Assembly (NCBI GenBank): GCA_000002435.2
Contig: CM018792.1
From: Giardia intestinalis
Lineage: Eukaryota
Direction: 5' to 3' (one strand)
DNA length: 64,000 bases
Shown here: piece by piece, positions 22,210 through 29,648 of the stretch
Numbering within the stretch: the first letter of the stretch is position 1
How the letters are laid out: the number at the start of each line of letters is the position of its first letter
The notes under the pieces: generated by a model
What the model saw: the letters and a program-made list of their open reading frames with translations, nothing else
Told to the model about the DNA's origin: nothing
The model's database searches: none
Translations under genes and position numbers: made by a program

Positions 22210-23902
22210 TCACGCCTTCCCCCTACACACGAACCACCAGCAGAGGAAGCCCACGAGGCCCCCCACGACAGCGACCACGGCGACGGCAATGCCCGCGATG
22301 GCCCCCGTGCGGAGGCCGCTCCTATTACTGCCAGAGGACACACACTTATCACCCTCTATGCTGTATCCATCGCTGCACTCCCCACACACATCATCCATCA
22401 CACAGCTCTTGCAGTGGTGTCAGAGCATACTACACACCCACTGCCATCCTTGTTGGGCTTTTATCACTGTCACAGGAGGTACACACAGCAGCAGCCATAC
22501 CACCCTCAGTCAGAGCTGTTGGGGCTGTGCACTGTGAGCAGCCATCCACCCCCACGTATGCCTTAGCAGTACCTTGAGGGTCTACTAGTGTGCCTAGGGG
22601 GTTGCCACAGGCTAGTACAGACTGATCAGTAGCCTTTGCTTCTGGGACTACGAAGTACCTATCATTGGCATTGGGAGTAGTACAGACACCAGCTGTTGTT
22701 GCTTCGGAGCACATGAGGCTACCAGGCACCTCTGTTGCTTTATAACAGCCACCCATATAGAGGAAGTAGTTGTTGGTGCACCGCGTACATACACCATCGG
22801 CGCAGGTATTACCTGCAAGTGCATTGGTGCACTTCCCATTAATGGGGCCATAGCCGGCGCCAACACACTTTGAACAGTAAGAGAGCATGCTGCCGTCGTT
22901 GCCGACCACGATGGCGTCGCAGGCCCCTGCTGTCCCCCCGCATGCAGTCTCATCTTCACAGGTCTTTGTACACGTATAGTCATCCCCTGCATCTCCATTA
23001 AGCTGTTTCTTATAGTTAGGCTTACAGTCAGTACATTTGAATCCACCACTGTTAGAGCATGCACTGCACCCATCGCGGCCACCATTTGCTGTATCACTAC
23101 ATGAGATGCACTCACCAGAGGAGCTATCCTTCAAGAAGTACCCTTGCTTGCAGGTCGTGCATTGGTCTTTTGTATCCTTAGCACAGGTGGCACAGTTCTC
23201 ACCACAGGCTGTGCATGTAGCGGTATTACCACTTGCACTATTGTAATATCCATCGAGGCACTTTGTACATGTAGTTTTAGAGGAGCAGGTATCACAACCT
23301 AGAATCCCACCATTTTTAGTATCACCACATGGAACACAAGCTTTTGGAGATTGTTCAAGGAAGTGCGTATTGCCACTTGTGCACTCTGCCTCCGCAACAC
23401 ACGTCGCTGACCCATCGGGGTTCACCTTAAGAAGCAGGTTTCCTCCACTATTACACCCAGTGCACACAGGCTTCTGAAGAGTGTCGCTGTATGCACACGT
23501 AGCACATTCATTGACACTTGTGTCCGTGCAGGCCTTGCATTGGCCTGTTTTTGGGTCTGCATACTTACCATTGTCACATTGATTAGCATCCACACACTTG
23601 TCAGCCTTCAGGAACTTCCCCTCAACGCAGGCGGTACACTGAGTCGGAGTATCAGCTGAGCAGGCAGAGCAGCCCTCTCCGCACTTCACACATGCACTGT
23701 CCTTCTTAACGAACCCATCTTGACAGGCAGTACATGTGACAGGTCCTGCACTCTGTGGTGCCTGACACTGTGCGCAGTTAGCCACCCCCGTATATCCATC
23801 TGCTCCCTTGATATCATGACAGAGGATGCACTCACTACCCTTCTCTGGTGTTGCAGCAGGGTTCTTGAACAGGCCGTTATCTGCCTTACAAGTAGTGCAC
23901 AC
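22210..23902 (-). pseudogene. VSP cassette U11 (family C body), frameshifted at the junction with the C-terminal module
   Basis: The 490-aa ORF (22430-23902) ends ...CTSCDSDKSPTRMAVGV. A separate 63-aa ORF (22210-22401) carries ...[16 protein letters not shown]. The two pieces are in different frames. Confidence 0.75.
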
Positions 23903-24024
23903 TCCTCCCTCAGCCTTTGTACATATCTCACTCCACTATCATACTATCACACACTATCACCCATTATCACCCTCTATCACACATTATCACCCATTATCAT
24001 CACTCATAGCATTCACTACCTAAG

Positions 24025-27667: not shown

Positions 27668-27867
27668 GATGCACTCGCTACCCTTCTCTGATGGTGTAAC
27701 TGGGTTCTTGAACAGGCCGTTAGCTGTATTACAAGCAGTGCACAGTCCTCCCTCAGCCTTTGTACATATCTCACTCCACTATCATACTATCACACGCTAT
27801 CACCCATTATCACCCTCTATCACACATTATCACCCATTATCATCACTCATAGCATTCACTACCTAAG

Positions 27868-29648
27868 TCACGCCTTCCCTCTACACACGAACCACCAGCA
27901 GAGGAAGCCCACGAGGCCCCCCACGACAGCGACCACAGCCACGGAGATCCCCGCGATGGCCCCCGTGCTGAGGCCGCTCCTATTACTGCCAGAGGACACA
28001 CAGGAGGCCCCAGCATCATCAGGGCTGTACCCATCGTTGCACACACAGACAGAGTTATCATCAGTGGAGTTGCTGGGACAGCCATCCACGCATGACTTCC
28101 TCCCAGGGCTCACCTTCCCACTACTACATGCCTCGCACATGTCATCCCTGTTGGGCTTCTTACTACTGTCACAGGAGTACAGACAGCGGGGGCCATACCA
28201 CCATCAGACAGAGCTGCTGGGGCTGTACACTGGGAGCAGCCCTCTACCCCGACGTATGCCTTAGTATCTACTAGTGTGCCTAATGGGTTGCCACAGGCCA
28301 GGACAGACTGATCAGTGTTGGATGCACCAGGGACTACGAAGTACTTATTATTCTCATTGGCAGCTGTACACTTACCATCGGCTGCTGTCTTGCACATGAG
28401 GCTTCCTGGTTCTGTATCATACTTATAACACCCACCCATGTACAAGAAGTAGTTGTTAGTGCATTGTGTACATACACCTTGATCACATTGATTATTTGCT
28501 TTAGCACTATTACACTTCCCATCTATAGGATACGTATTAGCTTCTCCACAGTATGAGCAATAATGATGCTCTACACCCTTATCATCAATCACTATTGCAT
28601 CGCAGGCACCAGAGGTACCACCACAAGCCGTGGGGTCTTCACATGTCTTCACACATGTATAGTCATCCCCCGCATCTCCATTGGATTGCTTCCTGTAGTT
28701 AGGCTTACATTCAGTGCACTTGAACCCATTATTGTTAGAACATAGACTACAGCCTTCACGGCCACCATCTGTTGTACTGTCACAAGCAACGCACTCACCA
28801 GTAGAGCCGGGTTGTTTCATGAAGAATCCAGGCTTGCATTTAGTGCACTTATCATTGCCAGCTTGAGTGCAGGTGGCACAGTTGGCACCACAGGCTTCAC
28901 ATGTAACCGTACCACCATTTCCACTATTGTAATATCCGTCGAGGCACTCCGAGCAGGTCGGCTTGGCTCCGTTCTTCTTACATGTTTTACACCCAGGCGT
29001 CCCTTTATTAGCTTCTAAACTTTCACTATCATCACTACACAATATGCACTTGGTGCTACCATCATTTAGAAAGTGGGATCCGTCAACGTTACTTGTTGCG
29101 CACCCATTTGCATCGACACAGGTTGTCGTGCCATCGATGGCCGTCTTCACCATCTTCTGACCACCGCAGTTAGTGCACTTCGGCTTCTTGGTAGTCGAAT
29201 CAACCTCACACTGGGTACATGCTTGATCTATCGTGTTGCAAGGAAGGCACTTCCCCGACTCCGGGTCAGCATAAGTGTTTCCAGTGCATCCATTATTATT
29301 CACGCATGACTTGTCAGTCTTCAGGTACTTCCCCTCTGGACACGATGTACACTGATTCGGACCACTTCCATCGCAGGTCAGACAAGACTGATCACACTGC
29401 ATACATACCAGAGAGTCCTTGTAGTATCCATCTTGGCAGGTATCACACGTGGCAGCCCCTGGACTATTAGCTGGTGCCGTGCACTTGAGGCAATTAGCCA
29501 CTCCCTTGTTCTCATTCGCTCCCGTGGCATCATGGCACAGTATGCACTCCCCACCAGGGGTCACTGTCGTAGCCTTGTTCTGGAATATGTACTGGTTATC
29601 TACCTTACAAGCAGTGCACACTCCATCACTGGCTGCTGTGCATATCAC
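27868..29648 (-). pseudogene. VSP cassette U14 (family F), frameshifted near the junction with the C-terminal module
   Basis: The body ORF 28110-29648 ends ...GGMAPAVCTPVTVVRSPTGMTCARHVVVGR. The tail ORF 27868-28140 carries CRGKA in another frame. Confidence 0.7.

Follow-up and report, generated by a model that had tools for sequence, protein, structure and literature searches.

Single-nucleotide deletions clustered at the body/tail boundary of three pseudo-VSP cassettes in a linear array of Giardia intestinalis WB: candidate scars of recombination

A linear array of one VSP gene and 21 pseudo-VSP cassettes

We analyzed a stretch of 64,000 nt (referred to as the window) of contig CM018792.1 from the 2020 PacBio assembly of Giardia intestinalis WB C6 (GCA_000002435.2), which contains a head-to-tail linear array made up of sequences for variant-specific surface proteins (VSPs) (3444..44887, minus strand). 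Three members of this array are frameshifted at the boundary, or seam, between the variable body and the conserved C-terminal tail, and these frameshifts are the subject of this study. A scan for CRGKA followed by a stop codon identified 22 units, all on the minus strand and with stops from 3444 to 42818, which we numbered U1 to U22 along the plus strand. Each unit ends in CRGKA and a stop codon and, as judged from an identity matrix and a block analysis, the units are mosaics of shared blocks. The open reading frames (ORFs) in and around 22210-29648 are cysteine-rich, end in a transmembrane (TM) helix followed by CRGKA, and match the Giardia VSP profile PF03302 (E=1.4e-38 for U8, with significant matches also for the bodies and tails of U11, U13, and U14). 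The GGCY motif used as a criterion for Giardia VSPs is present in the translations as FLYMGGCY. The TM helix with CRGKA and stop codon is found in all 22 units; in U11, U13, and U14 it is out of frame with the body.

U22 (42818..44887, minus strand) is the sole complete VSP gene of the array. Its ATG lies within the initiator TAATGTT and is followed by a signal peptide (MFQLIPLFVASALMAAC), and an exact look-up identified the product as KAE8304460.1. A motif scan of the array found TAATGTT only at the start of U22 and YAATGTT nowhere in U1 to U21. These 21 cassettes have no initiator, signal peptide, or in-context start codon and begin with ...SEICTKAEGG or ...ICTAA.. directly after the spacer. 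An N-terminal signal peptide and a start codon are required in a functional VSP (Xu et al., 2020; PMC7000408), and U1 to U21 are therefore pseudo-VSPs and not VSP genes. With their conserved 3′ tails and a common 5′ truncation point, they adjoin a single expressible copy, U22. Exact look-ups against WB C6 matched the ORF at 302-2755 to KAE8304459.1 and the genes from 47.6 kb on to KAE8304461-69; no protein accessions were found for U1 to U21, which fall in the gap between KAE8304459 and KAE8304460.

The units are separated by spacers of about 30-120 nt, measured from the stop codon to the next open frame. The spacer between the stop of U12 and the body of U11 (23936..24024, minus strand) consists of CTTAGGTAGTGAATGC, a VSP-type polyadenylation box, followed by degenerate GTGATAG/GGGTGATAATG repeats, and contains neither an initiator ATG nor a signal peptide. 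Spacers such as this one and the one at 25987-25998 fall into few length classes, made up of CTTAGGTAGTGAATGC and a variable number of GTGATAG/GGGTGATAATG repeats, and these GT-rich repeats resemble GGCAGTGGGTGTG of the seam. U1, the last cassette, is the only one followed by ACTCAGGTAGTAAAC (3425-3446), which is close to the poly(A) box regarded as classical for VSPs; the sequence after each internal cassette is CTTAGGTAGTGAATGC, or CTTGGG… in the case of U18. U12 and U19 keep extra upstream VSP homology (…MRLLFMGGCYNKDAHPGSEICTKAEGG), and their truncation point therefore lies just before the first GGCY motif.

Four single-nucleotide deletions in three cassettes

Reading of all units in three frames showed that 19 of the 22 are open from the spacer to CRGKA (18 of the 21 cassettes) and that only U11, U13, and U14 are broken. 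The same three had been singled out in a previous, sequence-only reading of this DNA by their ORF ends, all of which were recovered: the U11 body ORF (22430-23902) ends in ...CTSCDSDKSPTRMAVGV, the U13 ORF (26300-27667) in ...DGGMAPLSVLL, and the U14 ORF (28110-29648) in ...GGMAPAVCTPVTVVRSPTGMTCARHVVVGR. No other frameshift or in-frame stop was found in about 41 kb of cassettes, and no nonsense substitution anywhere. To define the lesions, every unit was aligned at the nucleotide level over its last 460 nt at the 3′ end, and the raw sequence was inspected. The sequence-only reading had assumed three independent indels within about 30 nt; the alignment instead yields four 1-nt deletions spanning 78 aligned nt. 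All four are -1 events in runs of identical bases, with run lengths of 5, 5, 2, and 2 nt, and no +1 event was found in this small sample. The location of the indels in homopolymer runs, which that reading had named as a refuting observation, applies to two of the four deletions, those in 5-nt runs. Restoring the four bases opens all three cassettes end to end (575, 593, and 595 codons), and these four are therefore the only lesions.

Cassette U11 (22210..24024, minus strand) has an open body at 22433-23935 and a tail at 22213-22419, with a frame offset of -2. Its first deletion (22459..22462) shortens a run of five A residues to four (GATAAAAGCC compared to GATAAAAAGCC in U10/U16/U21), and the body ORF is closed in the resulting -1 frame by a premature TAG (22430..22432). 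The second deletion, 45 nt downstream, leaves a single A at 22415 (CCAAC to CCAC, 22414..22416; GACACCACTGC compared to GACACCAACTGC in U10/U16/U21) and brings the net shift to -2. Both deletions lie about 205-255 nt from the 3′ end of the cassette. Site-specific k-mer pairs for the two deletion states are GTGATAAAAGCCCAACAAGG vs GTGATAAAAAGCCCAACAAGG and TCTGACACCACTGCAAG vs TCTGACACCAACTGCAAG.

Cassette U13 (25999..27867, minus strand; body open at 26303-27778, tail at 26002-26373, offset -2) also carries two deletions. One is found in U13 only and reduces five C residues to four (26319..26322; GGCCCCGC compared to GGCCCCCGC in U14/U22, the five-C context in U14, U22, and others being ATGGCCCCCGC). 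The other, which leaves a single C at 26308 (ACCTCC to ACTCC, 26307..26309), is shared with cassette U14 (27868..29715, minus strand; body open at 28113-29654, tail at 27871-28203, offset -1), where the single C left is at 28177 (28176..28178) within a 104-nt patch that is otherwise identical to U22. U13 and U14 thus read GTACTCC where eight intact units read GTACCTCC. The k-mer specific for U13 is GTATGGCCCCGCTGTCTGTACTCC, to be compared with versions containing the five-C run and/or ACCTCC, and the pair for U14 is GGCCCCCGCTGTCTGTACTCCTG vs ...GTACCTCCTG. Upstream of the seam U13 and U14 do not differ over 1138 nt, nor do they over 275 nt downstream of it, and their common deletion is therefore inherited and represents one event by descent. 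They differ only in a 48-nt stretch at the seam (three substitutions and the C-run deletion) and in the last 20 nt. Independence of the indels, as originally assumed, hence does not apply to U13 and U14; the sample comprises effectively two lineages, U11 and the ancestor of U13/U14.

The TM helix and CRGKA follow in another frame in all three broken cassettes, as the sequence-only reading had proposed; its assignment of the tails to the CGECNSGFS type does not extend to all of them, as they are of three different types and the tail of U13/U14 is of a 'DMCEACSSGKVSPGRK...' type. The U13/U14 tail also misses 54 nt (18 codons) that are kept in every intact relative. At this in-frame deletion between direct repeats, a single CAACAGGGA remains in U13 (26276..26284) and in U14 (28145..28153). 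In U4/U20, two 9-nt copies of CAACAGGGA lie 54 nt apart and flank a perfect 8-nt inverted repeat (GCAGTGGG...CCCACTGC) just inside, an arrangement of direct repeats around an inverted repeat that has the classic slippage geometry. This out-of-register 54-nt deletion lies 22 nt from the frameshift of U13/U14. An intact relative of U12/U13 at another locus, XP_001703902.1 (P0002), keeps the 18 codons.

The distribution of the deletions was evaluated by simulation, placing frame-breaking events uniformly over a 1750-nt cassette. Four events fall within 78 of 1750 nt with p ~3e-4, and three events in the same span with p ~6e-3. Under this plain uniform model the clustering is real.

Block structure of the cassettes and origin of the deletions

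The cassettes are block mosaics. Near-identical pairs differ in discrete blocks, which are the 5′ head, one block in the middle of the body, the stretch from seam to tail, the TM region, and the final ~20 nt, and never by scattered single substitutions: U5 and U7 are identical, as are U16 and U21, U8 and U11 show 0 differences over 1563 nt, and U13 and U14 0 over 1138 nt. Distinct block boundaries are concentrated at the seam, where 13 of 56 fall in 188 columns representing 9.7% of the aligned columns (about 2.4-fold enrichment, binomial p=0.0024), and a single body type occurs with three different tails (U4/U20, U6/U8, and U11). Over 1563 nt U11 matches U4/U8 at 100% identity, and this match reaches exactly to the column where the first U11 deletion lies. 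Past this column it continues with 44 nt identical to U10/U16/U21, the second deletion, about 25 nt of U10-like sequence, a U18-like stretch, and a remainder of which the window contains no second identical copy. Within a common stretch of 18 nt (CCTCCTGTGACAGTGATA) the template switched, with U4/U8-like sequence before and U10-like sequence after, and the first deletion is located at the first informative base after this switch. The 104-nt patch of U14 that is identical to U22 ends at the CAACAGGGA joint. Blocks are shared among the cassettes and with U22, and the direction of transfer is not readable from the window. No donor for the U11 tail was identified in the window or in protein databases, the best match of the repaired 98-aa tail being 84% identical.

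A hairpin or quasi-palindrome at the seam was considered as a cause of fragility and rejected by a folding test: single-strand folding of the seam was no better than that of shuffled sequences (z = 0.57, -0.88, and 0.49), showing no unusual secondary structure, and the only notable element is the 8-nt inverted repeat inside the deleted 54 nt. At other loci, XP_001703911.1 (P0234, WB 2007) and a partial VSP of G. duodenalis (P0238) read in the +1 frame through a tail end and a U12/U19-type spacer, followed by '(T/L)CSVG(D/G)CKSC...CRGKA'. These sequences therefore join the spacer directly to the tail at GGTGTG inside the seam and lack the whole body. Such 'mini-cassettes' resemble the 224-bp 'vsp14' of Adam et al. 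(2010; PMC2996952).

We consider the four deletions best explained as recombination-associated scars in silent pseudogenes, a reading to which we assign a probability of roughly 0.5. The array consists of one expressible gene, U22, and 21 promoterless, 5′-truncated cassettes, the blocks of which would have been exchanged by unequal crossing-over and gene conversion. The broken cassettes stem from two lineages, U11 and the common ancestor of U13/U14, which presumably gained -1 deletions in short runs while recombination was rebuilding a boundary of about 80 nt that separates the variable ectodomain from the semi-conserved membrane-proximal/TM tail. The likeliest mechanism would be error-prone repair synthesis during gene conversion, in which the strand being copied comes off its template and anneals again, either to that cassette or to a different one. 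The foreign patches of 44-104 nt, the -1 slips in runs, and the single deletion of 54 nt, bounded by 9-nt direct repeats that flank a hairpin, may have been left behind in this way. One slip would have been spread by tandem duplication of the U13/U14 ancestor, and the slips probably accompanied the exchanges in time. As the cassettes are silent, the frameshifts would persist without being removed by selection. The proposal of the sequence-only reading that the seam is a recombination joint draws support from the enrichment of block boundaries, the tail swaps, the first U11 deletion at a switch, and the 54-nt deletion; it fits less well with the remaining deletions, which lie 16-45 nt inside short patches.

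Several observations weigh against this reading. Only one of the four deletions, the first of U11, is exactly at a block boundary, and the seam has no unusual secondary structure. The donor of the U11 tail is absent from the window, and both U11 deletions could come from a donor that had already decayed. The clustering rests on effectively two lineages and on a seam defined after the data had been seen, and it becomes weak (p 0.03-0.10) when events in the simulation are confined to the last 400 nt. Two of the four deletions lie in 5-nt homopolymers of a PacBio/Quiver assembly whose authors found such errors (PMC7000408), and the frameshifted ends have no independent sequence support. A more far-reaching version, in which the seam (…GGMxxAVCTSCDSDxKPNxDGSGC…, ~200-330 nt from the 3′ end) would be a dedicated hot spot of DNA exchange that places variable bodies onto constant anchors via silent arrays, seems improbable to us. 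In that case G. intestinalis would diversify its antigens by segmental gene conversion besides epigenetic switching, with the -1 deletions, patches, and spacer-tail fusions as footprints.

As the main alternative, some or all of the 1-nt deletions might be residual PacBio/Quiver consensus errors that Illumina correction missed in this repetitive array, the cassettes themselves being intact. The authors of the assembly reported that PacBio homopolymer errors truncated genes, and they corrected an indel only where 10 or more mapped Illumina reads were available and 50% or more of these backed it (PMC7000408). The nature of the lesions, four -1 changes in runs of which two are 5-mers, is consistent with such errors, as are the perfect cassettes obtained with the bases restored and the searches for the frameshifted ends. 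A homology search found no protein that shares the shifted end of the U14 ORF (the best match being the intact relative XP_001703902.1, 85%), ten candidate ORFs of U9-U14, covering both frames of the broken cassettes, had no exact protein-cluster match, and two pattern scans of JGI metagenome contigs matched neither the deleted nor the intact state. The U22-like VSP found on an ENA contig (P0003) is the only VSP there, and the contig contains no array. Short 'VSP' entries of the 2007 WB assembly (96-181 aa; XP_001704929.1, XP_001703851.1, XP_001703899.1, and XP_001703900.1) match the tails of U1, U6, U16/U21, and U18, sharing every checked 12-mer, and these intact tails are therefore independently confirmed by Sanger-era sequence; no such entry was found for the tails of U11, U13, or U14 among the 2007 WB proteins. 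Against consensus errors, 161 other runs of at least 5 nt are intact in the array (119 5-mers and all 42 G6 runs), two lesions affect runs of 2 nt, where homopolymer error has a poor target, and the CC to C change occurs in two cassettes but in none of the eight units that share the ACCTCC motif and have similar flanking sequence. Each 5-mer lesion is located within 16-45 nt of a non-homopolymer lesion, and a hand calculation from the run census gives a chance of ~2e-4 that two random homopolymer errors fall in 3 eligible runs out of ~163. Short-read correction had power at the lesion sites because all of them are unique at the 51-151-mer scale, and consensus errors cannot account for either the 54-nt deletion or the patch structure. 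We consider it doubtful that the frameshifts are for the most part artefacts; an artefact in one or both of the 5-mer lesions is likelier than that.

Alternatively, the deletions could be real and unrelated to recombination, reflecting ordinary decay of silent pseudogenes with clustering by chance or through a selection filter; under such a filter, bodies would be kept open as donors or be very young, and frameshifts would be tolerated only in the uncopied tail. Pseudo-VSPs split over frames by indels have been described in WB (bioRxiv 10.1101/2022.03.07.483299), 18 of the 21 cassettes are fully open, and the clustering is no stronger than p ~0.07 when the simulation is limited to the two events outside 5-nt homopolymers, besides the weak values for the last 400 nt given above. 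The flanking blocks, however, show almost no point mutation (0/1563 nt for U11 vs U8 and 0/1138+275 nt for U13 vs U14). With a background of effectively zero, four indels by ordinary decay are not expected, and in keeping with the sequence-only reading, the lack of scattered substitutions in near-identical pairs means that ordinary decay explains the deletions poorly. Decay also has to accommodate the complete lack of nonsense substitutions and the coincidence of the deletions with patch blocks and a repeat-bounded deletion, and the filter presupposes a use of pseudo-VSPs as donors for which there is no evidence in G. intestinalis. We regard decay as unlikely. A functional role, by a programmed ribosomal shift or a phase-variable run that regulates the cassettes, is hardly credible. 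Two lesions do lie in short homopolymer runs, and such runs can serve as phase-variation switches in other organisms, but the runs concerned are only 4-5 nt long and the cassettes have no initiator, in-context start codon, or signal peptide. U11 and U13 would each need two shifts, with a stop codon in between in U11, and the seam structure is not unusual. Comparable arrays of G. muris are reported to be untranscribed (PMC7641422). Programmed ribosomal frameshifting in particular is ruled out by the anatomy, with no start, two shifts needed, and no stimulatory structure at the seam.

Surroundings of the array and comparison with known systems

Directly downstream of the array and in the same orientation lies KAE8304459.1 (302-2755, minus strand), an 817-aa high cysteine membrane protein of group 4 with a VSP-like TM segment (…GFLCWWFIFRGRRIDASPSTMTLISSKSM) followed by a long cytoplasmic tail in place of CRGKA. 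Upstream of U22, the region 44000-46300 has 63% G+C, more than the array (about 51%) or the flanking genes (45-47%). Long overlapping ORFs are present on both strands of this region, and the U22 frame is open for about 60 codons upstream of its ATG. Short-read Logan contigs from four runs that contain the flanking gene stop around this region, about 1.5 kb before the array.

Within the array, higher-order duplications are visible at 10963-18488, where U2, U5, and U7 are identical or 3 positions apart and a unit of two cassettes is repeated (U5-U6 and U7-U8). Another pair, U16 and U21 (31671-33495 and 40993-42817), is 100% identical over 1825 nt, with the two copies four cassettes apart. The C-terminal 390 codons of U10 (20396-21565, minus strand) are 100% identical to the UniProt entry Q8I8W3, 'Variant-specific surface protein S6' (partial, 390 aa; P0097). 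If this entry came from cDNA, the supposedly silent U10, or an identical copy elsewhere, is transcribed.

Linear arrays of this kind have been described in WB. Adam et al. (2010; PMC2996952) reported vsp genes arranged head-to-tail with a mean intergenic distance of 60 bp (up to 241 bp), with a PyAatgTT initiator and non-coding sequence upstream at the first member and neither initiator nor signal peptide in later members, together with evidence for recombination in the 3′ few hundred nt. The pseudo-VSPs of WB were treated further by Xu et al. (2020; PMC7000408). The present array belongs to the same locus class in the same organism, with matching spacing and an initiator at the first member only; it has 22 members, more than the 10 found in arrays of the 2007 assembly, in which the present array fell in a gap. 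The word 'frameshift' does not occur in PMC2996952. Rodriguez-Walker et al. (bioRxiv 10.1101/2022.03.07.483299) listed pseudo-VSPs split across frames, 'explained by insertions/deletions', some of them without an in-frame TM domain or cytoplasmic tail. Their catalogue gives examples only, without a positional analysis of the indels or a link to recombination joints. The locus type, its mosaic and recombinant nature, and frame-split pseudo-VSPs are thus already published. In the literature examined we found no description of lesions clustered within 78 nt at the body/tail boundary inside patch blocks, nor of their likeness to a repair-synthesis signature. Overall, we see a known kind of locus with a small added observation, which is plausible but unverified.

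On the renewal of the ~130 VSP genes and the role of the 200+ silent pseudo-VSP cassettes, published papers go no further than speculation that the arrays serve as reservoirs or as graveyards. Should the deletions prove real and linked to block joints, they would provide a cheap and countable footprint of recombination that could be surveyed across arrays and isolates and would point to sites of exchange. Should they be PacBio errors, the reference describes three pseudo-VSPs wrongly and calls for local correction. The weight of either outcome is modest.

To our knowledge, copying of cassettes into an expressed VSP has never been demonstrated in Giardia, and switching among VSPs has been described as epigenetic. 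The array looks like the silent-cassette systems of trypanosomes, Pneumocystis, and Borrelia. We do not class it as a silent-donor system because the defining step, the copying of cassettes into the expressed gene, is untested in Giardia. Borrelia vlsE has a similar layout of silent cassettes. Telomeric tandem VSP cassettes without signal peptides occur in G. muris, where they are untranscribed and have been suggested to be a reservoir on which recombination or gene conversion draws (Xu et al., 2020; PMC7641422). The tails of these cassettes end in GCRGK and the arrays are adjacent to telomeres, whereas the tails described here end in CRGKA and the array lies between ordinary genes within the window. 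Trypanosoma brucei VSG and Pneumocystis MSG, with which the G. muris arrays have been compared (PMC7641422), have the same layout of one expressible copy beside promoterless, partly defective cassettes with shared ends.

A parallel to the lesions themselves comes from double-strand-break repair in yeast, in which many -1 and few +1 events occur in homonucleotide runs, together with template switches between diverged templates (PMC10592705, PMC3039667, bioRxiv 10.1101/2023.08.09.552703), and in which intragenic deletions are bounded by microhomology (mean 60 bp, with ~6 bp of microhomology; PMC10592705). The seam of the Giardia array differs from the yeast studies in organism, in offering a handful of events seen as end products only, and in that two of its runs are just 2 nt long. 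With four -1 and no +1 events, one 54-nt deletion with a 9-nt repeat, and foreign patches of 44-104 nt, it resembles them in each component, and this combination of -1 slips, a microhomology-bounded deletion, and template patches matches the signature of repair synthesis at yeast double-strand breaks.

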